This document shows, piece after piece, positions 12,923-37,408 of a stretch of DNA of 64,000 nt (positions within the stretch are counted from its first letter, which is position 1; each line of letters opens with the position of its first letter). A program made the translations under genes and the position numbers. This DNA is from an uncultured Candidatus Saccharibacteria bacterium. Its GTDB lineage: Bacteria; Patescibacteriota; Minisyncoccia; Phycocordibacterales; UBA2163. Location of the stretch: positions 87,643-151,642 of the forward strand of contig CAZVGL010000001.1 in assembly GCA_964626705.1 (NCBI GenBank), in the 5' to 3' direction. The notes under the pieces are model-generated. The model made no database searches. It was not told where the DNA came from and saw nothing but the letters and a program-made list of their open reading frames with translations.

Positions 12923-13000
12923 TAAACTGCAGATGAAGAAGATAAGCAGCTAATGTAGTCCAATGTTGGATTTACCTCTTAGCTGTTTTATTTTTGTCTG

Positions 13001-13024
13001 TTGCACCCAAAAAGGGCACGCCGA
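13001..13024 (+). repeat. Truncated solo copy of the TTGCAC structured-repeat family (head only) abutting copy 2 of the 232-bp duplication
   Basis: TTGCACCCAAAAAGGGCACGCCGA matches the unit heads at 13648, 13707 and 21562. Confidence 0.7.
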
Positions 13025-13252
13025 TTTTTGTAAAATTAGTTTCTTTAATCTTCTCACTCATAACAGGGTTGCCTTTCTTTTAGTACTTGACAAGATAGTC
13101 AAAGTGTGCTAGTATATAGGCATAATACATCGGGTGTTATTTGATCTTTTATTTTTTTGATTTTTTAGCCGAAAGGGGTTAAAAATGAAATATTTATTTA
13201 CTTTACTTATTGTTGCGATTACTTTTGTTTTTTCAACTCAAAATTCTTTTGC
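13021..13252 (+). repeat. 232-bp direct repeat, copy 2
   Basis: It is identical to 11901-12132 and carries the same promoter (TTGACA at 13087, TAGTAT at 13110), RBS and signal-peptide codons. Confidence 0.9.
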
Positions 13253-13598
13253 TTTGAATCATACCAGTTTCGAAGGTCTCACAAAGGAGTCTTCCATAGA
13301 AGATGTGGAAAAGATGCTTGATAAAGAGATAAAAGTCATTAATAACAAAAAAATCAATTTAAATAAAGAAAATATTCTTGTAAACCTTAAAAAGGCAAAT
13401 AAGAGTGTCGCTGAAGCAAGAAGTATCCTTTCTGGCGCAATATCAGAGCGTTACAAGATAGCGCTAGAATATGTAAAAATTTTAGCTGAAGAATTTCCTA
13501 CTGTTTCAAAAAAGAGAAAGGTGGAGATATTGGAAACTGTAAGAAAGGCAAAAATGACAGAGGAATTCTTAGCGGAAAGGTTTAAGGTTAAAGAATAG
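13185..13598 (+). CDS. Secreted small helical protein of unknown function (paralog B; same signal peptide, unrelated mature part)
   Basis: The first 23 aa are identical to paralog A. It is followed by the terminator at 13611-13647. Confidence 0.6.
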   Translation: MKYLFTLLIVAITFVFSTQNSFALNHTSFEGLTKESSIEDVEKMLDKEIKVINNKKINLNKENILVNLKKANKSVAEARSILSGAISERYKIALEYVKILAEEFPTVSKKRKVEILETVRKAKMTEEFLAERFKVKE

Positions 13599-13610
13599 TT
13601 TGAGTTTTAA

Positions 13611-13647
13611 AGGACTTGATACCGCGTATGTATCAAGCCTTTTTTAT
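13611..13647 (+). terminator. Rho-independent terminator
   Basis: AGGACTTGATACCGCGTATGTATCAAGCCT followed by TTTTTT. Confidence 0.7.
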
Positions 13648-13889
13648 TTGCACCCAAAAAGGGTACTGCAATCTGCAAATCAATCACTACGTTCTTGAGC
13701 AAACCGTTGCACCCAAAGGGCACGCCGGTTTGTAGCTGATCACTCCGTTCTCAGACAAACCGTTGCACCCAAAGGGCACGCCGGTTTGTGGCCAATCGCT
13801 TTGCTCTTGGACAAACCGTTGCACCTAAAGGGCACTGCAATCTACAAATCAATCGCTATCGCTCTTGAGTAGATTGGTTGCATTTTTTT
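13648..13889 (+). repeat. Tandem array of four structured repeat units of 56-59 bp (order B-A-A-B) plus a terminal TTGCAT, immediately upstream of rpsL
   Basis: The units start at 13648, 13707, 13763 and 13819. Each begins TTGCACC(C/T)AAAGGG(C/T)AC and ends ...AAACCG / GATTGG. The A units carry the inverted repeat CGGTTTGT-N21-ACAAACCG. The final TTGCAT at 13878 can serve as a -35 for rpsL. Confidence 0.85.
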
Positions 13890-13948
13890 GGCTTTGTAGT
13901 ATATTGTATCTACTCGCTAAGCGGGTTTTTTTATAAAAATACAAAGAA

Positions 13949-14356
13949 ATGTCCACAATTAACCAATTGGTAAAAAAGAAGAGAAAAAAAGAAGCCACAA
14001 AGTCAAAGACTGTGGCGCTTTCACGTGGTTTTAATACATTGAAGAATAAGCCGGTTTTCTATAATTCACCATTTAAAAGAGGTGTATGTATAAAGGTAAT
14101 GACAAAGACTCCAAAGAAACCTAACTCTGCTGTGCGAAAGGTGGCAAGAGTGCGACTTACAAACGGTATGGAGGTTACTGCATATATTCCAGGAATGGGG
14201 CATAATTTGCAGGAGCACTCAGTAGTACTTCTGCGTGGTGGACGTGTAAAAGATATTGGACTACGATACACTGTGGTACGAGGAAAGCTTGACGCAGGTG
14301 GAGTAGAGAAAAGAAATAGAGGAAGAAGTAAGTACGGTACTAAAAAACCTAAATAA
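13949..14356 (+). CDS. rpsL: 30S ribosomal protein uS12
   Basis: [33 protein letters not shown]; length 135 aa. Confidence 0.96.
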
Positions 14357-14365: not shown

Positions 14366-14836
14366 ATGAGAAGAAAAATTAAAAGAAGAAAAGAGGTTGA
14401 TGGAGACTCAGTATATGGGTCTGTTAAACTTACTAAATTTATCAACTACGTAATGCAAGACGGTAAGAAAAACACTGCGCGTAAAGTAGTTTACGATACT
14501 CTTGAAGAGATAAAAACTAAAGAAAAGACAGATAAACCGGAGGTTCTTTTTGAAACAGCTCTTGATAATGTGGGGCCAAACATGGAAGTACGTTCACGAA
14601 GAGTAGGAGGTGCTAACTATCAGGTTCCTAGAGAAGTGCGTCCAGAAAGAAGGATGTTGCTTTCAATGCGATGGATAATAGGTGCAGCACAAGCAAAGAA
14701 AGGATCTCCTATGTATAAAAGGCTTGCAGAAGAGCTTATACTTGCTAGTAAAAACGAAGGTGAAGCATTCAAGAAGAAAGAAAACGTACACAAAATGGCA
14801 GAGTCTAACAAAGCCTTTGCACACTTTGCTTGGTAA
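14366..14836 (+). CDS. rpsG: 30S ribosomal protein uS7
   Basis: S7 family; length 156 aa; follows rpsL. Confidence 0.95.
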   Translation: MRRKIKRRKEVDGDSVYGSVKLTKFINYVMQDGKKNTARKVVYDTLEEIKTKEKTDKPEVLFETALDNVGPNMEVRSRRVGGANYQVPREVRPERRMLLSMRWIIGAAQAKKGSPMYKRLAEELILASKNEGEAFKKKENVHKMAESNKAFAHFAW

Positions 14837-14893: not shown

Positions 14894-17038
14894 ATGGAAA
14901 GAGATTATCCACTAGAGAGAGTAAGAAACACAGGTATCATCGCACACATTGATGCCGGTAAAACTACGACAACAGAACGTGTGCTGTTTTATACTGGAGT
15001 ATCACACAAGATAGGAGAAGTGCACGAAGGAGAAGCTACTATGGACTGGATGGAGCAAGAGCAAGAGCGAGGTATTACTATTACTTCTGCTGCTACGACA
15101 GCTTTTTGGACTCCAACATATGCAGATAAAGGAGATGACAGTAATAAATATCGTTTTAATATTATCGACACACCAGGTCACGTGGACTTTACAGTGGAAG
15201 TAGAACGGTCTCTAAAGGTGCTTGATGGTGGAGTGGTGGTGTTTGATGGAGTAGCGGGAGTAGAACCACAGTCTGAAACTGTATGGCGACAGGCAGACAA
15301 ATACTCTGTACCAAGAATTTGTTTTATAAATAAAATAGATAGAACTGGTGCATCTTTCGAAAGGTCATACCAGACTATCTTAGACAGACTTACAAAAAAC
15401 GCAGTACGAATGCAGATACCTATAGGAGAAGAAGAAAATATGGAAGGTGTTGTGGACTTGCTTAAGATGAAAGCCTACTACTTTGAAGGTCAGATGGGTA
15501 TGGAAGTAAGAGAAGACGAAGTGCCAGAAAACTTAAAAGCTGAAGCAGAAAAGTTTAGAGGGGAACTTATAGAAAAAGCAGTTGAGAATGATGAAGTTCT
15601 TATGAATGACTATCTAGAAGGAAAAGAGATCCCAGTAGACAGCATAAAAAAAGCTATAAGAAAGGCAACAATTGCGAATCAGTTCGTGCCAGTGTTTACA
15701 GGTACTGCTTTGAAGAATAAAGGGGTACAGCTTGTGCTGGACGCTGTTATCGACTACTTGCCATCACCACTTGATATCCCGGCAGTTAAGGGTATTGATC
15801 CAAAGACAGAAGAAGAGATAGAAAGAAAAGCATCAGATGATGAGCCTTTTGCAGCACTTGCTTTCAAACTCCAGACGGATCCATTTGTAGGACAGCTTAC
15901 TTATTTCCGTGTGTATTCAGGTACGCTTGAAGCTGGTTCTTATGTTTACAATACAACAACAGGTAATAAAGAAAGAGTGGGACGAATCTTGCGTATGCAT
16001 GCCAACTCTCGTGAAGAAGTAAAGAAGGTTTATGCGGGAGAGATAGCGGCGGCTGTAGGACTTAAAGACACAAAGACCTCAGATACCTTGTCTGACGAGA
16101 CTAATCAAATAATATTAGATAGGATAGAGTTCCCAGAGCCCGTGGTAAACCTAAAGATAGAACCAAAGACAAAAGCCGACCAAGAGAAAATGGGTATCGC
16201 TCTTAAAAAACTTTCAGATGAAGATCCTACATTTAGAATATCTACAGATACCGAGACAATGGAAACTATTATTGCAGGTATGGGTGAGCTTCACTTGGAT
16301 ATTCTAGTAGACAGGATGAAAAGAGAGTTTAATGTAGAAGCAAATATCGGTAAGCCACAAGTAGCATATAAAGAAACTATTCAGAAAGAAGCAGAAGCAG
16401 AAGTAAAATACATAAAGCAGTCAGGTGGTCGCGGACAGTATGGTCATGTGAAGATTAAGATCAAGCCGCTTGAAGCTATAGAAGAAGATGCAAAGATACC
16501 TAAGAATGTTACAAGAGAAGAGGGGTATGAGTTTATAAACAGTATTAAAGGTGGAGTTATTCCTATGGAATACATACCTGCTGTTTCTAAGGGTGTTAAA
16601 GAAGGTATGCAAAGAGGTATTGTGGCGGGATATAAGCTTGTAGATATATCAGTAGACCTATTTGATGGTTCTTTCCATGATGTAGACTCATCTGAGATCG
16701 CTTTCAAGATCGCAGGGTCACAAGCGTTCCAGCAAGCAGCTGCAAAAGCAAAGCCTGTACTACTTGAACCTATTATGAAAGTAGAAGTGGTAACTCCAGA
16801 GCAGTTCATGGGAGACGTAACAGGTAACCTAAGTTCAAAACGTGGACAAGTAGAAAGTATGGAAGATAGGGGGATGCTAAAGGTGGTAAATGCTAAAGTA
16901 CCACTTTCAGAGATGTTTGGTTACACTACAACACTCCGCTCAATGACAGAAGGACGAGCATCGTCAACTATGGAGTTTGACCACTATGAAGTAGTGCCAC
17001 AAAATGTAGCAGAAGAGATCAAAGAAGCGAGAGGGTAA
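14894..17038 (+). CDS. fusA: Elongation factor G
   Basis: [21 protein letters not shown] and NKIDR motifs; length 714 aa. Confidence 0.97.
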
Positions 17039-17066
17039 TATAATATAAAAAATGAAAATGATAAAA

Positions 17067-17105
17067 GGGAGCTAGGCACAAATGTGCTTAGCTCCCTTGT
17101 TGGTT
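17067..17105. terminator. Bidirectional terminator between fusA and the permease gene
   Basis: GGGAGCTAGGCACAAATGTGCTTAGCTCCC forms a 13/14-bp stem. Confidence 0.7.
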
Positions 17106-17122: not shown

Positions 17123-18577
17123 TTAATATTTTGACAAGAATAACAATAAAGCAATACTCCCAGCGCAACTTATTATAATGAAGGGTATATACGGTAAATG
17201 TGTTCTAAACCTATATACTCCTTTACTTATACTCATTACTGCTACTCCTGCCACTGATCCGATTGGTAATAAATTACATCCTATCCCAGTAGAGAGAGCA
17301 AATAGAAGCCATTGTAATAGATTCATGTCCAGTTTATCTATGTTTAGTACGGCATATACTACTGGCACACTCCCAAATAGGGCAGAAAATGCACCCATTG
17401 AGATATTTACCGCAGTGTGGCTATACGAATCGTACAAGTTACCAACTACAGTTTCGAAGAAACCTATATACTCTAGACCACCTATCATAGGAAGAACGCC
17501 ACAAATAAACAGAAGAGCATCAAACTCTATTCTCTTTATTCGTCTCGAGACTATATTATCTTCTTCATCATTTTCATCATCGTCGGCAACTTCTTCTTTG
17601 CATTTTATTAACTTCATCATGTTTGGGATACCGCAAATAAAATGAAGAGCGTTGAAGTCTACTTCTTTACTTATGCTTTCCTCTTTAGATTTCCCATTTC
17701 GTCTCTTGTCTTTCATAAAGAACGATTTGGCTAAATATGTTAGACCACATAACATACCCAGATACGGAGGAAGGTGGAAGAAATGATGAAAACATACCCC
17801 TGTTCCTATTGTAAGAAGGAAGCATATCATTGCTCTATAAGCACCAGGTTTCATTTTGCGCACATTTAGTGATTCTTGACTCCCATTTCCTGGGCAACCT
17901 TTTGGGACAAACCAAACGGTGAGCATTGTGAATATAATCCAACAGACAATAGCGGGTGCGGCTAATGATTTTACAAATTCTGCAGTAGGTATTTTGTCTG
18001 CAACCCACAACATTAGAAGGGTGATATCTCCAAAAGGACTCCAAGCACCACCAGCATTAGATGCCAGTATAATACCAACACTCGTGGGTATTAGAAACTT
18101 TATGTTTTTTCTCTCAACTGTAAAAGCGACATTCGCCATAAGCATAGCGCTTGTCAGATTGTCCAAAACAGGAGACATACAAAACGTTAAAAACCCTGTC
18201 ATAACAAATAGCCATCTGTAACTACGCTGTTTCTTTTTTAGTCGGTCACTTAGATTATCGAAAACACCTAAATAAGTTAAGGTGTTAACATATATCATGG
18301 CGACCATAAGGAAGAAGAATAGCTCTCCTATGCTGGCTGTCATCTTAATTCTAAACCACTCATTGATTTCAGAATGATTTATAAACCCGTGTACTCCTAT
18401 ACAAAGCCAGATAATACCGGACGCAGACATTACTGGTATAAACTTATTAAGACTTATCGTCTTTTCAAGTATAACCAGAATGAATGCTGTCATTGCTATT
18501 CCTAATATGAAATAGCTCAGCATATGGTTCTCTAGCCATATACTACTGTTGATTAAATCGTTGTTGTGTATTTCCAT
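17123..18577 (-). CDS. ArsB/NhaD/CitMHS-superfamily ion transporter with a large central cytoplasmic loop
   Basis: About 12 TM helices and an acidic central loop (..EEVADDDENDEEDN..). The RBS AAAGGGGG lies 5 nt before the ATG at 18577; the ORF track begins 2 codons earlier. Confidence 0.5.
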   Translation of the reverse strand: MEIHNNDLINSSIWLENHMLSYFILGIAMTAFILVILEKTISLNKFIPVMSASGIIWLCIGVHGFINHSEINEWFRIKMTASIGELFFFLMVAMIYVNTLTYLGVFDNLSDRLKKKQRSYRWLFVMTGFLTFCMSPVLDNLTSAMLMANVAFTVERKNIKFLIPTSVGIILASNAGGAWSPFGDITLLMLWVADKIPTAEFVKSLAAPAIVCWIIFTMLTVWFVPKGCPGNGSQESLNVRKMKPGAYRAMICFLLTIGTGVCFHHFFHLPPYLGMLCGLTYLAKSFFMKDKRRNGKSKEESISKEVDFNALHFICGIPNMMKLIKCKEEVADDDENDEEDNIVSRRIKRIEFDALLFICGVLPMIGGLEYIGFFETVVGNLYDSYSHTAVNISMGAFSALFGSVPVVYAVLNIDKLDMNLLQWLLFALSTGIGCNLLPIGSVAGVAVMSISKGVYRFRTHLPYIPFIIISCAGSIALLLFLSKY

Positions 18578-18725
18578 ACACACCCCCTTTCAAAGAAGTT
18601 AAAGTGTAATTTTTAATTTAATTTTCGATTCTCAAGGTGCTGCAAACCTGCATAGTTGTAACATATTCAGCCCCTTGGCGCAATTATTCTGAACATGTGA
18701 ACGTCGCACGTCCAACTACAGGTAC

Positions 18726-18875: not shown

Positions 18876-19076
18876 ATGGATGACGCAGGAATGAGCAAAG
18901 GACTTATGTGGTTTCATGCAATCGTTCCAGCACTATTATTTTTTGGCTGTATAGGAGTTGTTGTATGGGCTTCTTTTGAAAGAGGTAAGAAAAAAGAATT
19001 AAAAAAAGAAAATAACAAATTAAAGAATGATGTAAACAGGCTTGAACGAGGGATATTAAGAAGTGATCACTGTTAA
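18876..19076 (+). CDS. Small single-TM protein with a C-terminal coiled coil (hypothetical)
   Basis: The RBS GAAGGAGG lies 7 nt upstream of the ATG at 18876. TM helix AIVPALLFFGCIGVVVWASF. The ORF-track start at 18810 is an upstream extension without an RBS. Confidence 0.5.
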   Translation: MDDAGMSKGLMWFHAIVPALLFFGCIGVVVWASFERGKKKELKKENNKLKNDVNRLERGILRSDHC

Positions 19077-19100: not shown

Positions 19101-19373
19101 ATGATAGAACTACTTGATCATATGTATTCTGCAAATGATGAGCAAATGACGTATTTGGCAAAAAGGATAATAGAGGGATCTGAAGTAACAATTGGGTATA
19201 AAGAAGAAAAGGCTTGGCTTGATAAATATACTGAGAGACAGCTAGGGATACCTTTTGACTTTGCGGAGCTGTATTTGAAACTAGGCATAATCGAGTGTCA
19301 TTCTGGCAATAATGATACCTGGGAACGGCATTATCTATTTCCTTATGAAAGGGCTTCAAGAATCACTTTTTAG
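19101..19373 (+). CDS. Hypothetical protein (90 aa)
   Basis: The RBS GGAG lies 7 nt upstream. It has no recognisable family and is adjacent to the 18876 gene. Confidence 0.4.
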   Translation: MIELLDHMYSANDEQMTYLAKRIIEGSEVTIGYKEEKAWLDKYTERQLGIPFDFAELYLKLGIIECHSGNNDTWERHYLFPYERASRITF

Positions 19374-19574
19374 TTGCGCTTTATCAAAAAGTAGGGCAGA
19401 GGACTCACTAGTACGAGTTTTCTGCCTATTTTTATATTATATCTTGCGCTTTTATTTATGTTCTGGTACTATATATCACATATCGCCTTGTGCGCTTTTT
19501 GTTATGCGCGCGAGCTTTGTCGCTAAAAAGGGGGGATATTGGTAAATTTATTAATTATTAATACATAAATTATT

Positions 19575-20768
19575 ATGGCAGAAGCTTTTGACAGGTCAAA
19601 ACCTCACGTAAACGTAGGTACAATTGGCCACGTTGACCACGGAAAAACAACTTTGACTGCAGCTATCTTGCACGTTCTACAACTTGCAGGAATGACAGTT
19701 AAGATGAAAAAGGTTGACGAAATCGACGGTGCTCCAGAAGAAAAAGCACGAGGTATTACTATCTCACTTTCTCACAACGAGTACGCAACAGACGCTCGGC
19801 ATTATGCGCACATTGATGCACCTGGTCACGCCGACTATATTAAAAACATGATCACAGGAGCCGCACAGATGGACGGCGCTATTCTTGTGGTTGCAGCATC
19901 TGACGGTGTAATGCCTCAGACAAGAGAGCACATCTTGCTTGCAAAGCAGGTTGGTGTGCCAAAGATTATCGTATTTCTTAACAAAGTTGATCAGGTTGAC
20001 GACAATGACCTAGTAGACCTTGTAGAAGAAGAAGTTCGTGAACTTCTTACACAATACGAGTTTGATGGAGAAAACGCTCCAGTTATTCGCGGTTCAGGAC
20101 TTAAAGCTCTTGACGCAACATCAATGGATGACGAATGGGCAAAGAAAGTTATGGAACTTGCAACAGCTCTTGACGAATACATCCCACTTCCAGTAAGAGA
20201 GATGGATAAACCATTCCTAATGCCTATTGAGGACATCTTCTCAATCGAAGGACGAGGTGCGGTTGTAACAGGAAGGATCGAAAGAGGTGTAGTGAAGGTA
20301 GGTGAAGAAATCGAGATAGTTGGTATTAAAGAAACATCAAAAACTACAGTTACAGGTATCGAGATGTTTAATAAGCAGCTTGAAGAAGGTCAGGCTGGAG
20401 ACAATGCTGGTATCTTGGTTCGTGGTCTTAAAAAAGAAGAGATTCACAGAGGACAAGTGCTTGCAAAACCAGGTTCTGTAACACCTCATACTGAGTTTGA
20501 AGCAGAAGCTTACGTTCTTAAAAAAGAAGAAGGAGGACGACACACACCATTCTTTACAGGTTATAAGCCACAGTTCTACATCAGAACAACTGATGTAACA
20601 GGAGAGGCAACTTTACCTGAAGGAACAGAGATGGTAATGCCTGGAGACACAACAACATTCACAGTGAAGCTGGTATCACCAGTTGCCCTTGAAGAAAAGC
20701 AAAAGTTTGCTATTCGAGAAGGAGGTAAGACTGTCGGTGCCGGAGTTGTGACAAAGATCATTGCGTAA
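19575..20768 (+). CDS. tuf: Elongation factor Tu
   Basis: [21 protein letters not shown] and NKVD motifs; length 397 aa. Confidence 0.97.
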
Positions 20769-20776
20769 ACTTAAAT

Positions 20777-21148
20777 ATGACAACAGCGACAACTAAAACT
20801 AAAAAAGCGCCTGCTAAGAAAAAAGCGTCAAAAAAAGACGAAGCGCCTAAGATCCGAATCCGTGTTCGTGCATACGAGCATAAGATTTTGGACAGTTCTA
20901 TAAAACAAATTATAGACACAGTGCTTCGTTTTGATGCAAAGATAGTAGGACCTATACCGCTTCCAACAGAGATCAAGAAGTATACTGTAAACCGTGCATC
21001 ATTTGTTTACAAAGATGCTCGTGAGCAGTTTGAGATGAGAGTTCATAAAAGGGTTATAGATATCCTTAGCCCATCTCCAAAGATCATAGAAGCGCTCACA
21101 AACATGAGCTTACCGTCTGGAGTCAATATCGACATAAAGATGGTTTAA
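20777..21148 (+). CDS. rpsJ: 30S ribosomal protein uS10 with a ~25-aa Lys/Ala-rich N-terminal extension
   Basis: IRIRVRAYEHKILDSS...VNRASFVYKDAREQFEMRVHKR is the S10 core. It is preceded by TTATTKTKKAPAKKKASKKDEAPK. Confidence 0.93.
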   Translation: MTTATTKTKKAPAKKKASKKDEAPKIRIRVRAYEHKILDSSIKQIIDTVLRFDAKIVGPIPLPTEIKKYTVNRASFVYKDAREQFEMRVHKRVIDILSPSPKIIEALTNMSLPSGVNIDIKMV

Positions 21149-21160
21149 ACTAAGATACAA

Positions 21161-21193
21161 AAACCCCGCAGGCTCAGCCTGCGGGGTTTTTGA
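21161..21193 (+). terminator. Strong rho-independent terminator directly after rpsJ
   Basis: CCCCGCAGGC-TCAG-CCTGCGGGG followed by TTTTTG. Confidence 0.85.
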
Positions 21194-21287
21194 TTTGCTT
21201 TACAAAATGATCTGACTATGGCAAACTATCATCTGGTAGTAAAACGTTGTACTCTATTTTAATCAATCTTTGTAAAGAGGAGGCTCA

Positions 21288-21464
21288 ATGTCAGTATCAA
21301 AAAAGACAAAGAAGAAACCTATTGAGAAAGAAGAATTTTTCATCGGTGTGTGTAATGAATGCGGAAACGAAACCGTAAAAGTTTCAAGCCTTGTTATAAA
21401 ACATTGGACGGATAAATGTAAGATCGGCAGTTGTGATGGGAGATACACTTACATCGAGGTTTGA
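21288..21464 (+). CDS. Unannotated 58-aa Cys4 zinc-ribbon-like protein (the ORF track missed it because it is under 60 aa)
   Basis: A perfect RBS AAGAGGAGG lies 6 nt before the ATG. Translation: MSVSKKTKKKPIEKEEFFIGVCNECGNETVKVSSLVIKHWTDKCKIGSCDGRYTYIEV (CxxC...CxxxxC). The minus-strand ORF at 21263-21448 is its antisense shadow. Confidence 0.6.
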   Translation: MSVSKKTKKKPIEKEEFFIGVCNECGNETVKVSSLVIKHWTDKCKIGSCDGRYTYIEV

Positions 21465-21561
21465 TATCTAATCAGTAAAAAAAGTTTATAATCAGTTACG
21501 CTCGCATACCCTGCATCATAGTGGGTTTGCGAGCATTTTTTTGTATAAAATCACCAAAATC

Positions 21562-21762
21562 TTGCACCCAAAGGGCACGCCGGTTTGTGGCTGATCACTC
21601 CGTTCTCAGACAAACCGTTGCACCCAAAGGGTACTTGCAATTTGCTAGGCCAATCGCTACGCTTTTGGGCAAATTGGTTGCACGACTCGGATTAGACAGC
21701 CTCCATGCACGCCGGTTTGTGGCTGATCACTCCGTTCTCAGACAAACCGTTGCATTTTATTG
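21562..21762 (+). repeat. Second tandem array of the TTGCAC structured-repeat family (units of 56, 60 and 72 bp plus a terminal TTGCAT) immediately upstream of rplC
   Basis: Unit 1 (21562-21617) differs from unit 2 of the rpsL array at one position. Unit 3 carries a 25-nt insert after the head. The array ends in TTGCAT, which forms a -35. Confidence 0.85.
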
Positions 21763-21778
21763 AGTATTATAGTACTAT
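21750..21778 (+). promoter_or_regulatory. Predicted promoter TTGCAT-N17-TACTAT for the rplC sub-operon
   Basis: The hexamers and spacing fit. The -35 is the terminal repeat head. Confidence 0.5.
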
Positions 21779-21793
21779 ACAATCACTTATTTA

Positions 21794-21815
21794 GAAGCTC
21801 GTAGCTTCTTTTTTG
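21794..21815 (+). promoter_or_regulatory. Leader hairpin GAAGCTCGTAGCTTC plus U-run, 8 nt before the rplC ATG
   Basis: The same motif recurs before rpsS (24576-24598). It looks like an attenuator or r-protein operator. Confidence 0.45.
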
Positions 21816-21822
21816 TTGAAAT

Positions 21823-22419
21823 ATGGCTAAGTTTATCATAGGCACAAAACAAAATATGACTCAGATCTTCGATACGGAAGGGCGAGTTCACCCAGCAACT
21901 GTTATAAATGCAGAGCCTACTTCAGTGACTCAGATAAAGAACAAAGAAAAAGACGGCTATGAAGCTGTGCAGGTGGGTTATGGAGAAAGAAAAGAAAAGA
22001 ACATAAACAATGCTCAGAAAACAAAAGGAAACTTTGAAGGTTTTAAAGAATTCATCGGTGCTGGGGAACTTAAAGTTGGCGACAAGATCGACATCTCAAG
22101 TTTTGCAGAAGGAGAAGAAATAGAGATCTCTTCTATTTCAAAAGGTAAAGGTTTTCAAGGTGTAGTAAAGCGTCATGGTTTTCACGGAGGACGACGTTCA
22201 CATGGTCAGAAGCATTCGGAAAGAGAGCCAGGTTCTATTGGTGCAACAGGTCCACAAAGAGTATTTAAAGGAAAAAAGATGGGTGGCCGTATGGGAAGTG
22301 ATAGAGTGACTTTGAAAAAAGTTGAAATACTTCAGATCGACAAAGACAATAATCAGCTTGTAGTAAGAGGTGCGGTACCTGGAAGAAGAGGGACTGTAAT
22401 AGAAATAAGCGCGCAATAA
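21823..22419 (+). CDS. rplC: 50S ribosomal protein uL3
   Basis: L3 family; length 198 aa. Confidence 0.95.
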   Translation: MAKFIIGTKQNMTQIFDTEGRVHPATVINAEPTSVTQIKNKEKDGYEAVQVGYGERKEKNINNAQKTKGNFEGFKEFIGAGELKVGDKIDISSFAEGEEIEISSISKGKGFQGVVKRHGFHGGRRSHGQKHSEREPGSIGATGPQRVFKGKKMGGRMGSDRVTLKKVEILQIDKDNNQLVVRGAVPGRRGTVIEISAQ

Positions 22420-22431
22420 TTTTAATATTAT

Positions 22432-23154
22432 ATGGAAACTAAAGTATACAATTTAGAAGGAAAAGAAACTGGAAAGGTATCATTACCCGAAAGTGTTTTT
22501 GGTTTACCATGGAATGATGACCTAGTGCATCAGGTGGTTGTATCTCAGCAGAGTAATTTGCGAACTCCTATAGCTCATACTAAAGATAGAAGTGAAGTAC
22601 GAGGTGGTGGTAGAAAACCATGGCGTCAGAAAGGTACTGGGCAATCTCGACATGGGTCAAGAAGATCTCCTATATGGCGTGGAGGAGGTATTACTTTTGG
22701 TCCTCGTAACGATAAGGATTATGGTAAGAAGATCAACAAGAAGATGAAAGCAAAAGCGCTTCTCACAATACTTTCACGAAAGTTCAAAGACGGTGAAATA
22801 ATATTCGTAGATTCACTTTCATTTGCAGAACCAAAGACGGCTAAAGCAAAAGAAGTTGTCACTAATCTTTCAAAGATAGCCGGGTTTGATACACTTGCTA
22901 CAAAGCGAAAAAACGCAGCATTGTTTGCACTTGGTACTAAAGACAAAAATACAGAAAAGAGTTTTCAGAACTTTGGAAGTATTTCAGTTGATGAAGCTCG
23001 TAACCTAGACCCACTTGATATTCTTACATACAAATATCTAATAGTTTCAGAGCCTAAAAATATAGTTAATTTCTTAGAAAGTAAATTACCAAAAAAAGAA
23101 GTGGCTAAAAAGGAAGTTAAAGCTGAAGTAAAGAAAGAGGTAAATAAAAAATAA
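22432..23154 (+). CDS. rplD: 50S ribosomal protein uL4 with a Lys-rich C-terminal tail
   Basis: L4 family; the tail reads ..KKEVAKKEVKAEVKKEVNKK. Confidence 0.94.
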   Translation: METKVYNLEGKETGKVSLPESVFGLPWNDDLVHQVVVSQQSNLRTPIAHTKDRSEVRGGGRKPWRQKGTGQSRHGSRRSPIWRGGGITFGPRNDKDYGKKINKKMKAKALLTILSRKFKDGEIIFVDSLSFAEPKTAKAKEVVTNLSKIAGFDTLATKRKNAALFALGTKDKNTEKSFQNFGSISVDEARNLDPLDILTYKYLIVSEPKNIVNFLESKLPKKEVAKKEVKAEVKKEVNKK

Positions 23155-23155
23155 T

Positions 23156-23566
23156 ATGGCATTGTTTGGATCAAAAAAGAAAAAAGAGGTTGCAGATAAA
23201 CCTAAAAAGGAGGTTAAAGCAGTGAAAAAAGCTGTAGCTAAAGCTCCTGCAGTTGCTGTGAAGCCACAAGCTAAAGGTGCTGATGGTATGTTTGCTCATA
23301 TTTTAGTACAGCCACGTATTACTGAGAAAGCTACTGAAAAGGCAGAGACTGGCGTATATGTATTTGAAGTTGCAACAAATGCTACAAAGAAAGAAATAGG
23401 AAGTGCTGTAAAGCATTATTACAATGTGACACCTATTAAAGTAAATATTGTAAAGATCCCTTCAAAGAAGATAACTTCAAGAACTACTCGTAAAACAGGT
23501 ACAAGACCTGGAGGTAAGAAAGCATATGTCTTTCTTAAAGAGGGGGATAAAATAGAGATTGTATAA
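23156..23566 (+). CDS. rplW: 50S ribosomal protein uL23 with a ~40-aa Lys/Ala-rich N-terminal extension
   Basis: The core AHILVQPRITEKAT..YVFEV is L23. Confidence 0.93.
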   Translation: MALFGSKKKKEVADKPKKEVKAVKKAVAKAPAVAVKPQAKGADGMFAHILVQPRITEKATEKAETGVYVFEVATNATKKEIGSAVKHYYNVTPIKVNIVKIPSKKITSRTTRKTGTRPGGKKAYVFLKEGDKIEIV

Positions 23567-23575
23567 TAAATTTTT

Positions 23576-24418
23576 ATGAAGAAATATAAACCAACAACAC
23601 CAGGAAGACGAGGAATGACAGGTATTTCATATCGAGATATTTTAACTACGTCAAAACCATATAAGCCACTGACTCGTGGTGTTAATCGTTCTGTGGGGCG
23701 AAACAGTGACGGTAGGATAACAACTCGACACAAAGGCGGAGGGCATAAAAGAGTGTGGAGAGAAATAAGTTTTAAATACGACAAACGAGAAGTTGTAGGG
23801 ACTTTGACAACTATTGAATATGATCCAAACAGATCAGGATTCATATCACTTGTATCATACAAAGATGGAGAAAAGAGATATGTACTTCTTCCACAGACAA
23901 TGAAGGTTGGCGACACTATAGTAGCTTCAGCTGAAGCTAAAGTGAAAGTAGGTAATTCATTACCACTTAATAAGATCCCTGTAGGTACTTTTGTATACAA
24001 TGTAGAGATCAAGCCAGACAGTGGTGCAAAGATCGCACGTTCAGCTGGTAACTATGCAGAGGTTATTGCAAACGACGGTGGCTTCGTACACTTGAAGATG
24101 CCATCATCTGAGATACGAAAAGTAAGTGAAAAAGCTTGGGCATCTGTTGGTGAAGTAAGTAATGACGAACATAGGCTTGTGAACATCGGTAAGGCAGGGC
24201 GAGCACGATGGATGGGGAGACGGCCGACAGTGCGTGGTTCTGCTATGAACCCAGTAGACCACCCACATGGTGGTGGAGAAGGGCATGCAGGCCGTGGACG
24301 ACGACGAGCTATCTCTAAATGGGGTAAGCCGACAGGTAAAGGACAGAAGTCACGAAAACCTAAGAAATATTCAAATCAACTTATCGTTAAAAGAAGAAAA
24401 GTTGGAAAGAAAAGATAA
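23576..24418 (+). CDS. rplB: 50S ribosomal protein uL2
   Basis: L2 family; length 280 aa; HPHGGGEG motif. Confidence 0.96.
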   Translation: MKKYKPTTPGRRGMTGISYRDILTTSKPYKPLTRGVNRSVGRNSDGRITTRHKGGGHKRVWREISFKYDKREVVGTLTTIEYDPNRSGFISLVSYKDGEKRYVLLPQTMKVGDTIVASAEAKVKVGNSLPLNKIPVGTFVYNVEIKPDSGAKIARSAGNYAEVIANDGGFVHLKMPSSEIRKVSEKAWASVGEVSNDEHRLVNIGKAGRARWMGRRPTVRGSAMNPVDHPHGGGEGHAGRGRRRAISKWGKPTGKGQKSRKPKKYSNQLIVKRRKVGKKR

Positions 24419-24427
24419 TATTAAAAA

Positions 24428-24464
24428 CAAAAACACCGAGGTTTAACCTCGGTGTTTTTGTTTG
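24428..24464 (+). terminator. Rho-independent terminator after rplB
   Basis: AAACACCGAGG-TTTAA-CCTCGGTGTTT followed by TTG. Confidence 0.85.
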
Positions 24465-24541
24465 TTACGTAGCATGTTACGTAACAAAAAGCTGTTAAAT
24501 AGCTTATCTTATGTTGAAATGAGGGATTTAGCTGTTTTTTG

Positions 24542-24570
24542 TTGACATTGCGCTGTAATTTGGTAATATT
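24542..24570 (+). promoter_or_regulatory. Predicted promoter TTGACA-N16-TAATAT for the rpsS sub-operon
   Basis: It has a consensus -35 and a near-consensus -10. Confidence 0.55.
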
Positions 24571-24575
24571 CTGTA

Positions 24576-24598
24576 AAGCTCGTAGGAGCTTGTTTTTA
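24576..24598 (+). promoter_or_regulatory. Leader hairpin AAGCTCGTAGGAGCTT plus U-run before rpsS
   Basis: The sequence and position match the rplC leader hairpin. Confidence 0.45.
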
Positions 24599-24607
24599 TA
24601 GTTAAAT

Positions 24608-24952
24608 ATGTCACGATCACTCAAAAAAGGTCCATATGTAGATGAAAAGCTTCTCAAGAAGGTTGAGGGCAAGAAACCCGACGAAGTCAAAGGGCCTATT
24701 AAGACGTGGGCACGACGAAGTCAGATATCACCTGAGATGGTGGGCTTTACATTTGGTGTTCATAACGGAAAGGAGCATATAGAAGTGTTTGTTTCTGAAG
24801 AAATGGTGGGACATAGACTTGGAGAGTTTTCAGCTTCAAAGAAGTTCTTGCGACATGGAGGTAAAATACAAAAAGAACTCGATCAGAAAAAGAAAGAATC
24901 AGAAATAACAGCAGCTAAAGCAGCTAAAGAAGCAGGAGACTCTAAGAAATAA
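24608..24952 (+). CDS. rpsS: 30S ribosomal protein uS19 with a Lys/Ala-rich C-terminal extension
   Basis: The N-terminus [20 protein letters not shown] is S19. Confidence 0.94.
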
Positions 24953-24957
24953 TTATC

Positions 24958-25392
24958 ATGAAAGCACTTCTTAAAAACTATAGACAAGCACCACGTAAAG
25001 TTCGCCTTATTGCAAACCTTGTTCGTGGTAAGAAAGTTGATAGAGCTCTTATACTTCTATCTGCTACAGATAAAAAGGCAACACTACCTTTTAAGAAGTT
25101 AGTAGAGTCTGCAATAGCAAATGCAAAAAGTTCAGGTGCTAAATCTGAAGATTTGATAGTAAAAGAAATACAGGTAAACGAAGGTATAGTTTTCAAAAGA
25201 TACAAGCCACGAGCGCGCGGTAGGGCTTCAGCAATACGAAAAAAGACAAGTCACATCTCTGTTATTTTAGAAGAAGGAAAGAAGAAGGTTGAAAAAGCAA
25301 AAGTTGAGACTAAAAAGACAGAGGTTAAAAAGGTTGCAAAGAAGGCCGAATCTGTAAAGAAATCAGCAGTTAAGAAAACAGTTAAAAAATAA
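24958..25392 (+). CDS. rplV: 50S ribosomal protein uL22 with a Lys-rich C-terminal tail
   Basis: L22 family; length 144 aa. Confidence 0.93.
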   Translation: MKALLKNYRQAPRKVRLIANLVRGKKVDRALILLSATDKKATLPFKKLVESAIANAKSSGAKSEDLIVKEIQVNEGIVFKRYKPRARGRASAIRKKTSHISVILEEGKKKVEKAKVETKKTEVKKVAKKAESVKKSAVKKTVKK

Positions 25393-25393
25393 T

Positions 25394-26062
25394 ATGACAC
25401 ATACAGTACATCCATATGCACATAGACTAGGTATTTTAAGAGATTGGAAATCTCGATGGTTTTCTGCTGATCCAAAACGATATCGTGAATTTATAAAATG
25501 CGACACTACTATAAGACAATTTTTACAAAAGAGACTGCGAGGATTTTATATAAGTTCTATTGAGATAGAGCGAGGAGAAAAGAAATTAAGAATTATTATA
25601 AAGACATCACGTCCTGGTATGATCATCGGACGAAGTGGGGACGGTGCTACAAAACTTAAAAACGACATTGAAAAAGTTATCGCAAAGCTTAGCCTTACAG
25701 ACAAACAGGATATAAAACTTGATATAGAAGAAGTTAAGAACCCTGAATCCAATGCTGCTATAGTAGGGCAGATGGTAGCTGAAGCTCTTGAGAAGAGGAT
25801 GACATTTAGACGTGTGCTAAAACAAACTGTAGAGAAGGTTATGGCAAATCGTGATGTGGTAGGAGTGAGGATCGTCCTTGGAGGGCGCTTGGGAGGAGCT
25901 GAGATGGCACGAAAGGAACAAATCAAGAAAGGGCGTATCCCACTTCAGACTTTTAGAGCGGATATTGATTTTACGCGAGAAAAAGCATATCTTCCATATG
26001 GAGTGATAGGTATCAAGGTATGGATATATAAAGGAGATGTTTTTGCTGATGGTAAGAAATAA
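25394..26062 (+). CDS. rpsC: 30S ribosomal protein uS3
   Basis: Has a KH domain; length 222 aa. Confidence 0.95.
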   Translation: MTHTVHPYAHRLGILRDWKSRWFSADPKRYREFIKCDTTIRQFLQKRLRGFYISSIEIERGEKKLRIIIKTSRPGMIIGRSGDGATKLKNDIEKVIAKLSLTDKQDIKLDIEEVKNPESNAAIVGQMVAEALEKRMTFRRVLKQTVEKVMANRDVVGVRIVLGGRLGGAEMARKEQIKKGRIPLQTFRADIDFTREKAYLPYGVIGIKVWIYKGDVFADGKK

Positions 26063-26072
26063 TAATTAAAAT

Positions 26073-26492
26073 ATGTTATTCCCAAAGAAAGTAAAATATA
26101 GGAAGTGGCAAACAAGCCGCAAGAATCCTAAAAAGATCAGTCCAGCAACACGTGGCAACACTCTTGCTTTTGGCTCTTTTGGCCTGAAGTCTATGAAGGC
26201 TGTTCGCATAAGGTCAAACCAGATCGAAGCTGCACGAAGAGTGATCTCAAGAGCTATGGGAAAAAACGGAAGAATATGGACACGTGTATTCCCAGACCGA
26301 CCTTATACTGCAAAAGCAGCTGAGGTAGGTATGGGTAAAGGAAAGGGTGACCTGCAAGGGTATGAGTTCCCAGTACTTCCAGGGCATATACTTTTTGAGA
26401 TAGACGGTGTAGATGAAGCTATTGCACGTGAAGCGCTTAGGAAGGCAACTGCAAAGCTACCGCTTACAGCTAAAGTAATAAGTAGAGTTTAA
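26073..26492 (+). CDS. rplP: 50S ribosomal protein uL16
   Basis: L16 family; length 139 aa. Confidence 0.95.
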   Translation: MLFPKKVKYRKWQTSRKNPKKISPATRGNTLAFGSFGLKSMKAVRIRSNQIEAARRVISRAMGKNGRIWTRVFPDRPYTAKAAEVGMGKGKGDLQGYEFPVLPGHILFEIDGVDEAIAREALRKATAKLPLTAKVISRV

Positions 26493-26500
26493 ATATTAAT

Positions 26501-26692
26501 ATGGCAAAGAAAATAGATTTAAAAAATAAGAGTGATAAAGATTTACAGAAAGATCTCGCAGACAAACGAGAGAATGTTCGTACATTTCGATTTGGTGTTG
26601 CAGGAAGTAAGGTGCGTAATGTAAAAGAAGCGAAGAATATAAAGAGAGGTATTGCGCAGATCCTAACTGAAATAAGTTCAAGAAATAAATAA
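26501..26692 (+). CDS. rpmC: 50S ribosomal protein uL29
   Basis: L29 family; length 63 aa. Confidence 0.92.
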   Translation: MAKKIDLKNKSDKDLQKDLADKRENVRTFRFGVAGSKVRNVKEAKNIKRGIAQILTEISSRNK

Positions 26693-26693
26693 T

Positions 26694-26954
26694 ATGGAAA
26701 ATAAGACAGAACAAAAAAATATTGTAAAAAAACAAAAAACACTTTCTGGTGTGGTTGTTTCAGACAAGATGACAGACACAGCTGTCGTTGCTGTAGAGAG
26801 GTATGTAAAACACCCTAAGTATGGTAAGTTCATAAAGCGAGTAAAAAGGTATAAAGCTCACGATAAGGACAATCAGCATAAAGTGGGTGAAAAGGTAAGT
26901 ATAGAACAAACACGACCTATCTCTAAAGACAAGACTTTTAAGATAATAAATTAA
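26694..26954 (+). CDS. rpsQ: 30S ribosomal protein uS17
   Basis: S17 family; length 86 aa. Confidence 0.93.
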   Translation: MENKTEQKNIVKKQKTLSGVVVSDKMTDTAVVAVERYVKHPKYGKFIKRVKRYKAHDKDNQHKVGEKVSIEQTRPISKDKTFKIIN

Positions 26955-26955
26955 T

Positions 26956-27327
26956 ATGATACAGCCACAAACATTAGTAAAAGTGACAGACAACTCCGGA
27001 GCGAAGATCGGGCGAGTTTTCAAAGTGCTCGGAGGTTCAAAAAAACGATATGCACGAATAGGTGATATCGTGGTTTTGTCTGTACAGACTGCAGAGCCTA
27101 GAAAGATGGTTAAAAAGAAGGAAGTACTAAGGGCTGTTGTGGTAAGACAAAAACAGCCTTTCCGAAGAAAAGATGGTTCATATATTTCATTTGATGAGAA
27201 CTCTGTTGTGATAATAGATAAAGAAAAGAAGGAACCAAAAGCAGGACGAGTCTTCGGACCTATCCCTAGAGAGATAGGTGAGCTTGGATATCAGAAGATA
27301 GTGTCACTTGCACCTGAAGTAGTATAA
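26956..27327 (+). CDS. rplN: 50S ribosomal protein uL14
   Basis: MIQPQTLVKVTDNSGAK..; length 123 aa. Confidence 0.96.
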   Translation: MIQPQTLVKVTDNSGAKIGRVFKVLGGSKKRYARIGDIVVLSVQTAEPRKMVKKKEVLRAVVVRQKQPFRRKDGSYISFDENSVVIIDKEKKEPKAGRVFGPIPREIGELGYQKIVSLAPEVV

Positions 27328-27332
27328 ATATT

Positions 27333-27548
27333 ATGAAAATAAAAAAAGACGACAAAGTAAAAATAATCGCTGGGAAAGACAAAGGTAAAACTGGAAAGGT
27401 TTTACGTGCTATTCCTGACAATGATCAGATAATAGTGGAGGGTGTTAATATAAAAAAACGACATCAGAAGCCTACAAAAAGTAATCAGAAAGGGCAGATA
27501 GTAGACAAGACAACACCAATACATGTTTCAAATGCTAAGAAGATATAA
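27333..27548 (+). CDS. rplX: 50S ribosomal protein uL24 (short, KOW domain)
   Basis: KVKIIAGKDKGKTGKV is the KOW motif; length 71 aa. Confidence 0.9.
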   Translation: MKIKKDDKVKIIAGKDKGKTGKVLRAIPDNDQIIVEGVNIKKRHQKPTKSNQKGQIVDKTTPIHVSNAKKI

Positions 27549-27550
27549 AT

Positions 27551-28099
27551 ATGATTCATATAAAAGATAGACAAAAGAATACGTTTGATAATTTGAAAGA
27601 GACTTTCAAATATACAAATGTGATGCAGACACCAAAGATAGAAAAGGTGGTTATTTCAGCTGGTATTGGTTCTGTAAAAGATAAAAACAAAATCAAGACT
27701 ATAAAAGATAGACTCGCACGTATAACAGGGCAGAAAGAAGCAGCAAGAGCTGCAAAGAAATCTATAGCTACATTTAAGACACGAGAGGGTGACATACTAG
27801 GGTATCAGGTTACACTACGAGGTCAGAGAATGTATGACTTCTTAGATAGGCTTATTCATATCGCAATACCACGAACAAGAGACTTTAGAGGGCTCGACAT
27901 AAAAGGTATAGATGAGATGGGCAACTTCACTATGGGTATTAAAGAACACACGATCTTCCCAGAAACTTCAGATGAAGATCTAAAAGATGTGTTTGGATTT
28001 GCTATAACTTTTGTTACAACAGCTAAAAATAAAGAAGAAGCAAAAGAGTATTTCAAGAGTTTAGGTTTCCCATTTAAAAAGGAAGAAGAAAAAGCTTAA
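27551..28099 (+). CDS. rplE: 50S ribosomal protein uL5
   Basis: L5 family; length 182 aa. Confidence 0.95.
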   Translation: MIHIKDRQKNTFDNLKETFKYTNVMQTPKIEKVVISAGIGSVKDKNKIKTIKDRLARITGQKEAARAAKKSIATFKTREGDILGYQVTLRGQRMYDFLDRLIHIAIPRTRDFRGLDIKGIDEMGNFTMGIKEHTIFPETSDEDLKDVFGFAITFVTTAKNKEEAKEYFKSLGFPFKKEEEKA

Positions 28100-28109
28100 A
28101 AATCAAAAT

Positions 28110-28152
28110 AAAACAACCCCGTCGCTTGCAAGCGACGGGGTTGTTTTATTTT
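28110..28152 (+). terminator. Strong terminator after rplE; the ribosomal cluster ends here
   Basis: AAAACAACCCCGTCGCTTGCAAGCGACGGGGTTGTTTT. Confidence 0.85.
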
Positions 28153-28238: not shown

Positions 28239-28445
28239 ATGCAGACTACAACGAAAAAGGTTTTAGTTCATTTTGTCGAAGGAGAAATGGTAAATTGTTA
28301 CGATACATCGTGTGATGGCTGTAATGGACCGGATTGTTTTTTGAATGAGGGCCTGATTGCTGATAGCGACCTTACACGTAAAGATCCTGCATTTTGTTAT
28401 GCGGGCAATTCCGTGAATTTTTCAGAACTACTAAAGCCAGCTTAG
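28239..28445 (+). CDS. Small Cys-rich protein or peptide (68 aa) of unknown function
   Basis: The RBS GGAGG lies 7 nt before the ATG at 28239. Six Cys residues are present: NCYDTSCDGCNGPDCF...FCYAG. Confidence 0.45.
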   Translation: MQTTTKKVLVHFVEGEMVNCYDTSCDGCNGPDCFLNEGLIADSDLTRKDPAFCYAGNSVNFSELLKPA

Positions 28446-28568
28446 GTATAGGTAAAGACGTATAGATAAAATAGCCCGATTTTTCTCATTACGAGAGAGA
28501 TTGGGCTATTCTCTTATCTAACGACTTTTTGGGAATTCTGTGGTTATATAACAATATAGAATAGAAAT

Positions 28569-35938: not shown

Positions 35939-37408
35939 ATGGATAAAAGAATTTGTCTTGTAATACCACCAGCAGCATTCCTCCTTAGTCAGAGGGTGTT
36001 CATGTATCTTGGAATATTAAAGATAGCAGCTGTGCTTGAGAAAGCAGAATGGAAAGTAGAAATGCTAGATCTTTCTGGCATAAGTAATTTCAATGAAGTT
36101 GCGATAGAGCATGCAAAAACTTCCAAAGCTAAGATTTTTGGATTCACTGCCACAACTGCACAGGTTCCTGTAATTATTGATATTGTAAATGCAATAAAAA
36201 CAGTTAGACCAGATATAAAAACAATCCTTGGTGGTCCTCACGTTGCGATAACATATGCAGCTTACAAAGCTTACAAAGCTGGAAAAGATGGAGTCAACAA
36301 CAGGACTGTAAAAGAAATGGGAGAGCTTAAAGATTCATTCGACACTGTAATCGCAGGGGATGGAGAAAAGGCAATTTTTGAAGCAATTAAACCAGACGCG
36401 CCTAAGATCATAGACGCAGATGACGTTGACTCAAGTCTTTTTCTTACAAGTGAAGAATTAAATTCTTTGCCGTTTCCGGCAAGGCATCTTATCGATGTAG
36501 ATACTTATAAGTATTCGATAGATGGAGTGTCTGCATTGTCACTTATCTCTCAGCTAGGGTGCCCGTTTAATTGTAGTTTCTGTGGAGGAAGAAAATCTCC
36601 AATGTTACGTAAGACAAGAGAGCGTACACCAGAGAATGTTGTTGAAGAAATGGTTCACATGTATAAAACTTTTGGACGTAAAGGTTTTATGTTCTATGAC
36701 GATGAGCTTAATGTGAGTAAGCAAATGACTCATCTAATGAACCTAATCGCTTTAAAACAAGAAGAGCTTGGAGTAAAGTGGTGTCTTCGCGGTTTTATCA
36801 AATCCCATCTTTTTACAGAAGAACAAGCTCGTGTGATGTACAAAGCTGGTTTCAGATGGATCTTAGTTGGTTTTGAATCAGGTTCACCTAAAATATTGGA
36901 AGCTATTAATAAAAGAGCTACATGTGAGCAGAATACACGATGTATTGAAATCGCTCATAAGTATGGACTCAAGGTTAAAGCTCTTATGTCAGTAGGTCAT
37001 CCTGGGGAATCTATTGAAACAATAGAGGATACAAAGGATTGGATCTTAAAGGTAAAACCAGACGACGTTGATTTTTCTTTAATAGCCCCATTTCCAGGTA
37101 CTGAGTATTATGATCAAGCTGTTTTAGAAGAAGATGTATGGGTATACGTTTGTAAGAAGACAAATGGGAGGCTTTATCAGACTGTAAGTGCTGAGAATTC
37201 AGGATTTTATAAAGGTAAACCAGGTCAATATAAGTCTTGTGTTTATACTGACCAAATGTCTTCTACCGAACTAGTTGTGGCGCGTGATGAAATAGAGAAT
37301 AAGATTCGTGAAGAATTGAATCTCCAGTTTAACCCAAGTGCTGCAGCTAAAATGTATGACCATTCTATGGGACAGTTACCAACTTTTATTCTCCGAACAA
37401 CAAATTAA
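35939..37408 (+). CDS. B12-binding-domain radical SAM enzyme (class B)
   Basis: CPFNCSFCGG is the CxxxCxxC motif. There is an N-terminal Rossmann-like B12-binding region. The RBS AAAGGAGAAGGGGG is present. Confidence 0.85.
   Translation: MDKRICLVIPPAAFLLSQRVFMYLGILKIAAVLEKAEWKVEMLDLSGISNFNEVAIEHAKTSKAKIFGFTATTAQVPVIIDIVNAIKTVRPDIKTILGGPHVAITYAAYKAYKAGKDGVNNRTVKEMGELKDSFDTVIAGDGEKAIFEAIKPDAPKIIDADDVDSSLFLTSEELNSLPFPARHLIDVDTYKYSIDGVSALSLISQLGCPFNCSFCGGRKSPMLRKTRERTPENVVEEMVHMYKTFGRKGFMFYDDELNVSKQMTHLMNLIALKQEELGVKWCLRGFIKSHLFTEEQARVMYKAGFRWILVGFESGSPKILEAINKRATCEQNTRCIEIAHKYGLKVKALMSVGHPGESIETIEDTKDWILKVKPDDVDFSLIAPFPGTEYYDQAVLEEDVWVYVCKKTNGRLYQTVSAENSGFYKGKPGQYKSCVYTDQMSSTELVVARDEIENKIREELNLQFNPSAAAKMYDHSMGQLPTFILRTTN

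Follow-up and report, generated by a model that had tools for sequence, protein, structure and literature searches.

The str, S10, and spc operons of bacteria make up one of biology's most conserved gene clusters, with tightly spaced genes, no internal terminators, and rplE followed directly by rpsN/Z and the further spc genes up to secY. In Bacillus subtilis, most S10, spc, and alpha genes are co-transcribed in one transcript, and the L4-responsive S10 leader has a narrow distribution in the Gammaproteobacteria (PMC3616713); the preliminary description of the locus treated here was therefore wrong to attribute L4 autoregulation through an S10 leader to most bacteria. In a survey of Gammaproteobacteria and Bacilli, 65% of rearrangements were located between the classical operons, each of which stayed whole (PMC8046335). 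The same study (Brandis 2021) describes a two-step disconnection, in which a few genes are inserted between units before a second event separates them fully. In archaea, uS10 is always apart from the uL3-uL4-uL23(-uL2) cluster, which in turn is often separate from a large uS19...uL15 cluster (PMC10833476). Here, we analyze the str-S10-spc region in a 64-kb stretch of contig CAZVGL010000001.1 (hereafter, the window), which retains the genes of the bacterial cluster and their internal order. The region is correctly assembled, and we consider it likely that the superoperon forms a string of short modules, each with its own promoter and terminator, whose boundaries are inherited. Full-text searches of the literature found no account of such fragmentation in bacteria of the Candidate Phyla Radiation (CPR) or in Parcubacteria.

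The host is a tiny-genome Parcubacterium (CPR/Patescibacteria) related to Candidatus Campbellbacteria. Based on the L5 protein, its nearest species representative is the metagenome-assembled genome (MAG) co234_bin49 (86% identity), followed by two Candidatus Campbellbacteria MAGs and UBA2163 (78% identity), all of which fall in the Parcubacteria group of Patescibacteria. Pfam scans of every sizeable open reading frame (ORF) in the window established gene identities and order on the forward strand, with a first module of rpsL (13949-14356), rpsG (14366-14836), and fusA (14894-17038), and a second of tuf (19575-20768) and rpsJ (20777-21148), separated by a spacer of only 8 nt. The third module comprises rplC (21823-22419), rplD (22432-23154), rplW (23156-23566), and rplB (23576-24418), and the fourth rpsS (24608-24952), rplV (24958-25392), rpsC (25394-26062), rplP (26073-26492), rpmC (26501-26692), rpsQ (26694-26954), rplN (26956-27327), rplX (27333-27548), and rplE (27551-28099). 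Gaps of 674 bp between rpsJ and rplC, 189 bp between rplB and rpsS, and 469 bp between rplE and a set of glycan genes depart from the tight, terminator-free spacing of the conserved cluster and hold, at the level of sequence, terminator hairpins and promoters. Gene order and the end point at rplE, as given in the preliminary description, are borne out by these assignments and coordinates, as are the small four-cysteine ORF, the repeat array with its promoter, and the consensus rpsS promoter that it listed, all located below.

Intrinsic-terminator-like hairpins lie 3' of rpsJ (21158-21192; 16 pairs, -30.2 kcal/mol), rplB (24425-24463; -26.6 kcal/mol), and rplE (28105-28152; 20 or more pairs, -41.6 kcal/mol), all on the forward strand. 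Each consists of a perfect GC-rich stem and a following U-tract, which is the sequence signature of an intrinsic terminator, and the strong terminators previously placed at 21161, 24428, and 28110 hold up as sequence features. Compared to random 45-nt windows of the same sequence (median -4.4 and 0.1st percentile -21.8 kcal/mol), all three lie beyond the 0.1st percentile, and few structures in the window are as stable. Three loci from related genomes carry counterparts: equivalents of the rpsJ terminator are found in L008 and L009 and of the rplE terminator in L008 and L010, and the hairpin after rplB is identical in L008. Neither at gathering thresholds nor at E<=1 did Rfam searches of the window match a known RNA family, ribosomal-protein leaders included, and the sub-threshold matches coincide merely with the terminator hairpins.

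Sigma-70-type -35 and -10 hexamers with spacers of 16-18 nt stand upstream of rplC (TTGCAT-17-TACTAT, 21750-21778) and rpsS (TTGACA-16-TAATAT with an extended -10 TG, 24542-24569), and putative promoters can be read off the sequence for rpsL (TTGCAT-16-TATATT, 13878-13905) and tuf (TTGCGC-17-TACTAT, likewise with an extended -10 TG, 19444-19472); all four are on the forward strand, and those of rpsL, rplC, and tuf have a TTGC-type -35 in common. As a raw count, sigma-70-type promoters are no more frequent in the region than chance would give (41 found vs. 43 expected), so that support for these promoters comes from their conservation in relatives. The rplC promoter is kept in L008 and L009, and the rpsS promoter in 29 of 40 relatives, that of L008 differing from the window's at one base of a 28-nt core. 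Over 34 nt, spacer included, the rpsS promoter (24539-24572) also matches the organism's own rpsZ promoter (L172:7346-7379) base for base, and the leaders of both genes carry an AAGCUC-N4-GRGCUU hairpin with a U-run. This identity suggests that the two copies may be subject to concerted evolution or to a bound factor.

The rpsL, rplC, and rpsS leaders (forward strand) share a plan—a short hairpin at the start, a U-run, and no Shine-Dalgarno sequence. The rpsL hairpin (13912-13926) is followed by seven U, the rplC hairpin (21793-21809; AGAAGCU-cgu-AGCUUCU) by six U, and the rpsS hairpin (24576-24591; AAGCUC-guag-GAGCUU) by a U-run, and the rplC stem shows compensatory changes in L008 and L009. 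With hairpin and U-run, the rplC and rpsS leaders are formally terminator-like and in this respect resemble the attenuator of the Escherichia coli S10 leader, but they are single stems of 6-7 bp, whereas that leader has five hairpins; moreover, there is no leader 5' of rpsJ, given the 8-nt tuf-rpsJ spacer, and no Rfam match. Two arrays of a 56-nt tandem repeat adjoin promoters on the forward strand, one of ~4 units at rpsL (13650-13883) and one of ~3 units at rplC (21555-21755), both directly against the TTGCAT -35. The repeat unit is TTGCACCCAAAGGGCAC plus the inverted repeat CGGTTTGT...ACAAACCG. The arrays look like tandem copies of the promoter's upstream half and occur solely in contigs of this species, being absent from the same sites in L008-L010. 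A scan of JGI metagenome contigs with TTGCACCCAAAGGGCAC returned 78 single matches with no link to the organism, apparently by chance, and was set aside.

To place these boundaries in a wider context, we compared intergenic distances in ~50 Parcubacteria-like loci and 29 other bacteria. Across the Parcubacteria-like genomes, only three junctions are expanded: rpsJ|rplC (median 158 bp, with 50% of loci above 150 bp), rplB|rpsS (746 bp, 88%), and rplE|rpsZ (464 bp, 80%). At most of the remaining junctions, the median is ~30 bp or less and no more than 12% of loci exceed 150 bp. In 26 other bacteria, more distant CPR lineages included, the median rplB-rpsS gap is 12 bp. Under a strict filter that required the hairpin to lie within 110 nt of the stop codon, terminator-like hairpins followed rpsJ in 6 of 24, rplB in 10 of 32, and rplE in 12 of 48 loci, against 0-10% elsewhere. 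Strong promoters in the 150 nt upstream were most frequent for rpsS, as given above, and rpsZ (15 of 40), with other genes at 0-24%. A leader hairpin with a U-run behind it, starting no more than 16 nt from the -10 element, was present in 29 of 45 promoter-bearing leaders but in only 6% of shuffled controls, and the sequence of the stem differs from genome to genome. Since the same three junctions are expanded across ~50 genomes and come with terminators, conserved rpsS and rpsZ promoters, and leaders, the architecture is, as far as these sequences tell, an old trait of the lineage and neither an oddity nor an assembly error. The preliminary description was thus right that the superoperon is segmented at rpsJ|rplC and rplB|rpsS by its sequence signals, but the promoters are not new, and the breaks, shared by the Parcubacteria-like genomes, are typical of this lineage.

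Two further leader elements came to light among the relatives. In seven of them, Kaiserbacteria by label in some cases, rplC is preceded by a conserved structured leader of ~90 nt (L012:4072-4162, L013:2628-2722, L015:4003-4098, L018:2782-2868, L027:157-245, L034:3403-3482, and L041:3563-3634), consisting of CUAUGUCC-hairpin-GGACC and then an nAUGGC...GCCAUUG helix that, with the U-run after it, resembles a terminator. This leader has no Rfam match, is absent from the window, and is a candidate for a new ribosomal-protein attenuator. In L008, which represents the closest related species, a ~195-nt element occurs twice (6856-7050 and 10748-10944, 75% identity), within the 5' leaders of rpsS and rplJ; neither the window nor the other loci yielded a copy.

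Two of the three breaks, rpsJ|rplC and rplB|rpsS, coincide with the boundaries of archaeal clusters, although the modules of the window are still adjacent and their separation is deduced from transcription signals. These signals are of bacterial type (sigma-70 promoters, intrinsic terminators). The third break, uL5|uS14, falls inside the cluster that archaea keep contiguous (uS19...uL5-uS14-uS8...uL15). Archaea also have an S12-S7-EF2-EF1alpha-S10 unit, to which the position of rpsJ directly after tuf in the window is similar. Both convergence and shared ancestry would be compatible with the match in boundaries. In contrast to the pattern in Gammaproteobacteria and Bacilli, all three breaks lie within the S10 and spc operons as defined in E. 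coli and recur at identical sites class-wide.

If this organization is as we propose, module boundaries would be inherited fault lines common to most Parcubacteria of this class. With a promoter and a terminator of its own for each module, boundaries could take insertions without harm—small cysteine-rich ORFs, repeat arrays, and a transporter here, and toxin-antitoxin and IS200-like genes in relatives—and, in the Campbellbacteria-like family, a whole module could move. Near-identical promoter-leader cassettes would then coordinate the modules in trans, as we infer from their resemblance, and the 5' hairpin with its U-tract might, conjecturally, serve as an mRNA-stabilizing stem-loop or a weak attenuator. 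More tentatively, the modules could form a regulon coordinated by these cassettes, in which the hairpin and U-tract leader is a shared attenuator or the target of a trans-acting factor, the 56-nt arrays are possibly sites that bind an activator or recruit RNA polymerase, and module boundaries delimit natural units of ribosome assembly; this last idea is suggested by the coincidence with archaeal cluster boundaries. We regard this fuller scheme as possible rather than probable.

Several points count against the modular reading. Our survey drew on one tblastn-ranked sample of GTDB species representatives, ignored kinship, and included some truncated loci; transcription is taken to start and stop at the predicted signals from sequence; and the leader hairpins are short, with 6-7 bp and -6.5 to -9.2 kcal/mol. 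In L010, the gaps measure just 88 and 109 bp, with no clear terminator downstream of rpsJ or of rplB, so that segmentation may be leaky or variable. The distance to the distal module reported below (~215 kb) also presumes that two contigs are collinear at one end.

The same absence of obvious terminators in L010, which nonetheless has promoters, would fit an alternative in which long read-through transcripts dominate, the hairpins stop transcription partially, stabilize RNA, or mark processing sites, and internal promoters do no more than fine-tune stoichiometry, as in other bacteria whose ribosomal-protein operons contain internal signals. It would also accord with the largely single S10/spc/alpha transcript of B. 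subtilis (PMC3616713) and with the low proportion of relatives (25-31%) that pass the strict terminator filter at these junctions. On the other hand, the three hairpins of the window have perfect GC-rich stems of 16-20 pairs with U-runs and rank among its most stable structures, the rpsJ-rplC gap houses a monocistronic ORF that has a terminator of its own, and the gaps of many relatives contain opposite-strand genes. The distal spc module, in addition, cannot be co-transcribed with the rest, being ~215 kb away on the opposite strand. We therefore consider predominant read-through unlikely, if still worth weighing, and favor separately transcribed modules.

The position of this distal module is the point at which the window departs most from the conserved cluster, in which rplE leads directly into rpsN/Z...secY. 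Using sequences of relatives as references for rpsZ, rpsH, rplF, rplR, rpsE, rplO, secY, map, and adk, we found none of these genes in the window (tblastn, best E-value 0.028, which is noise) or within 10 kb beyond either end, as the preliminary description had stated, map apart, for their expected place. ORFs at 45-3454, similar in size to rplF...secY, proved to code for proteins of type II secretion and pilin-like type and were rejected. Neither is the lack of rpmD part of the break, as that description had it: L30 is missing from all CPR bacteria (bioRxiv 10.1101/2022.01.07.475337), and the gene is not expected here.

The genes are not lost, and the search for them elsewhere that had been proposed recovered an intact module. 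A SecY search led to P0047, whose longest contig (296,901 nt) equals in length ERZ4231642 NODE_2, which carries the window's gatB; the longest contig of P0121, the DUF4015 protein beside the module, likewise measures 296901. The P0047 locus reads murD-murC-DUF4015-TrwB-LTD/PKD-...-rpsZ-rpsH-rplF-rplR-rpsE-rplO-secY, followed by a terminator, two opposite-strand ORFs, and then adk-map as a separate unit. On ERZ4231637 NODE_1_length_288235, the window's gatB lies at 246,983-248,413 and the P0121 flank at 1-13617, reversed. Calculated from the contig coordinates, rpsZ starts on the opposite strand at a distance of ~215 kb from the stop codon of rplE, if NODE_2 is collinear with NODE_1 at the low-coordinate end. 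The genes from rpsZ to secY would thereby constitute a fifth module, with adk-map as a further unit. An earlier guess based on three contigs with nearly coincident ends downstream of the window, which had put the module ~70 kb downstream on the same strand, was ruled out by the flank's reversed position at the low end of the 288-kb contig. In a sibling species (L178:7443-21272), whose SecY is 96.7% identical, murB-secA is found ~5.5 kb downstream of the distal spc module; the window's murB-secA (57851-61845) instead follows the glycan block, and the two layouts point to further rearrangements within the genus.

Linkage between rplE and rpsZ is wholly lost in the organism of the window, in L008, L009, and L010, and independently in one Zambryskibacteria genome, and in no others of the set compared. 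Detachment of the distal spc module is thus the part of the architecture that is specific to the Campbellbacteria-like family. The series of relatives with small inserts at rplE|rpsZ and a family in which the linkage is gone resembles the two-step pattern of Brandis 2021. Where rpsZ...secY would be expected, the window has a ~27-kb glycan-synthesis block (28569-55647, from Pfam matches) with many GT4 and GT2 glycosyltransferases, methyltransferases, a B12-binding radical SAM enzyme, an ABC exporter, a GDP-mannose dehydratase, and a Wzy-like ligase. Glycan genes directly after the rplE terminator, together with the frequency of inserted genes at this junction in relatives (up to 5.3 kb), could be taken for an island recently inserted into an intact spc operon. 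However, the halves of the operon do not flank the block, which is followed by a LamG/fn3 protein gene, murB, secA, and gatB rather than rpsZ, and the distal module is on the opposite strand at ~215 kb, behind murD-murC-DUF4015-TrwB-LTD/PKD. The adjacency of rplE and the first glycosyltransferase gene (GT771) is also old, since a GT771 homolog directly follows rplE in L009 and L010, two related species with 78% identity in L5; L008 has rplJ-rplL after rplE instead. A recent insertion is accordingly very improbable. That the junction at ~28150 is a misassembly or chimera, with rpsH and rplF just beyond it, finds a basis only in the unexpected gene order and in the tendency of metagenome assemblies to break or join at repeats, and has next to no chance of being right, for at least 24 contigs (some 94-297 kb long), which come from several JGI and ENA samples and from different assemblers, encode exactly this L5 protein, the ones listed have an identical rplE-68-aa ORF-GT771 junction, and two other species share it.

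Should separately transcribed modules be confirmed, a minimal-genome bacterium could balance its output of ribosomal proteins without co-transcription, and we propose that it does so with one promoter-leader cassette copied onto separate modules. The three fault lines recur in a cluster that is otherwise among the most conserved known, and two of them coincide with archaeal boundaries. There is also a practical consequence: CPR phylogenomics often uses the syntenic block of ribosomal proteins on a single scaffold, and with S14, S8, L6, L18, S5, and L15 ~215 kb from the rest in this family, scaffold-based marker sets will be systematically incomplete for it. Furthermore, the junctions are sites at which the arrival of toxin-antitoxin systems, IS200-like genes, or small ORFs can be predicted.

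Cargo at the junctions varies in kind and strand among relatives. An IS200/Y1-transposase-like ORF of ~220 aa with an HxH-type motif ("SNHFHLMV") occupies the rplB|rpsS gap of five of them (L024, L028, L032, L042, and L050), and MazF/PemK-like and HicAB-like genes are found in other gaps. In the window, a 58-aa four-cysteine ORF (CxxC...CxxxxC; 21288-21464, forward) with a strong Shine-Dalgarno sequence and its own terminator hairpin (21500-21545, forward) lies between the rpsJ terminator and the rplC promoter and is seen in this species' contigs only. A second cysteine-rich ORF (68 aa; 28239-28445, forward), also with a strong Shine-Dalgarno sequence, stands between the rplE terminator and the glycan genes. 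Neither of these ORFs, each directly after a terminator, belongs to a Pfam family or has a homolog in the nearest species; the B12-binding radical SAM gene (35939-37408) lies near them. Between fusA and tuf are a CitMHS-family transporter gene on the reverse strand (17123-18583), with no homolog at that position in L008-L010, and two small forward-strand ORFs (18876-19076 and 19101-19373) that have Shine-Dalgarno sequences and no Pfam match. A stable hairpin (17065-17098, -27.8 kcal/mol) separates the convergent fusA and transporter genes, and a terminator-like hairpin (19394-19427, forward; -21.0 kcal/mol) with a U-run follows the two ORFs. Upstream of the first glycosyltransferase gene, a further forward-strand hairpin (28470-28510) is kept in L009, and this hairpin and its downstream sequence are conserved between window positions 28470-28568 and L009:10720-10805 (Campbellbacteria), a stretch that could be a leader of the glycan gene block. 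The window contains no tRNA genes, and hence none at the junctions to mark integration sites.

Beyond the cluster itself, the region 5' of rpsL holds secretion/pilin, glycolysis, recJ, comEC, and other genes, and rpoBC is not there. Downstream of gatB (from window coordinate ~65 kb on; L088-L090), a giant surface protein gene with Bact_surface_Ig-like and Peptidase_S74 domains (up to 3165 aa) receives very different calls in three assemblies of this one organism, which suggests strain-level variation or assembly trouble at repeats. Among the ribosomal proteins, L24 (27333-27548) has merely 71 aa, and S10 (20777-21148, 123 aa) and L23 (23156-23566, 136 aa) bear lysine-rich N-terminal extensions; the matches in relatives are similarly long.

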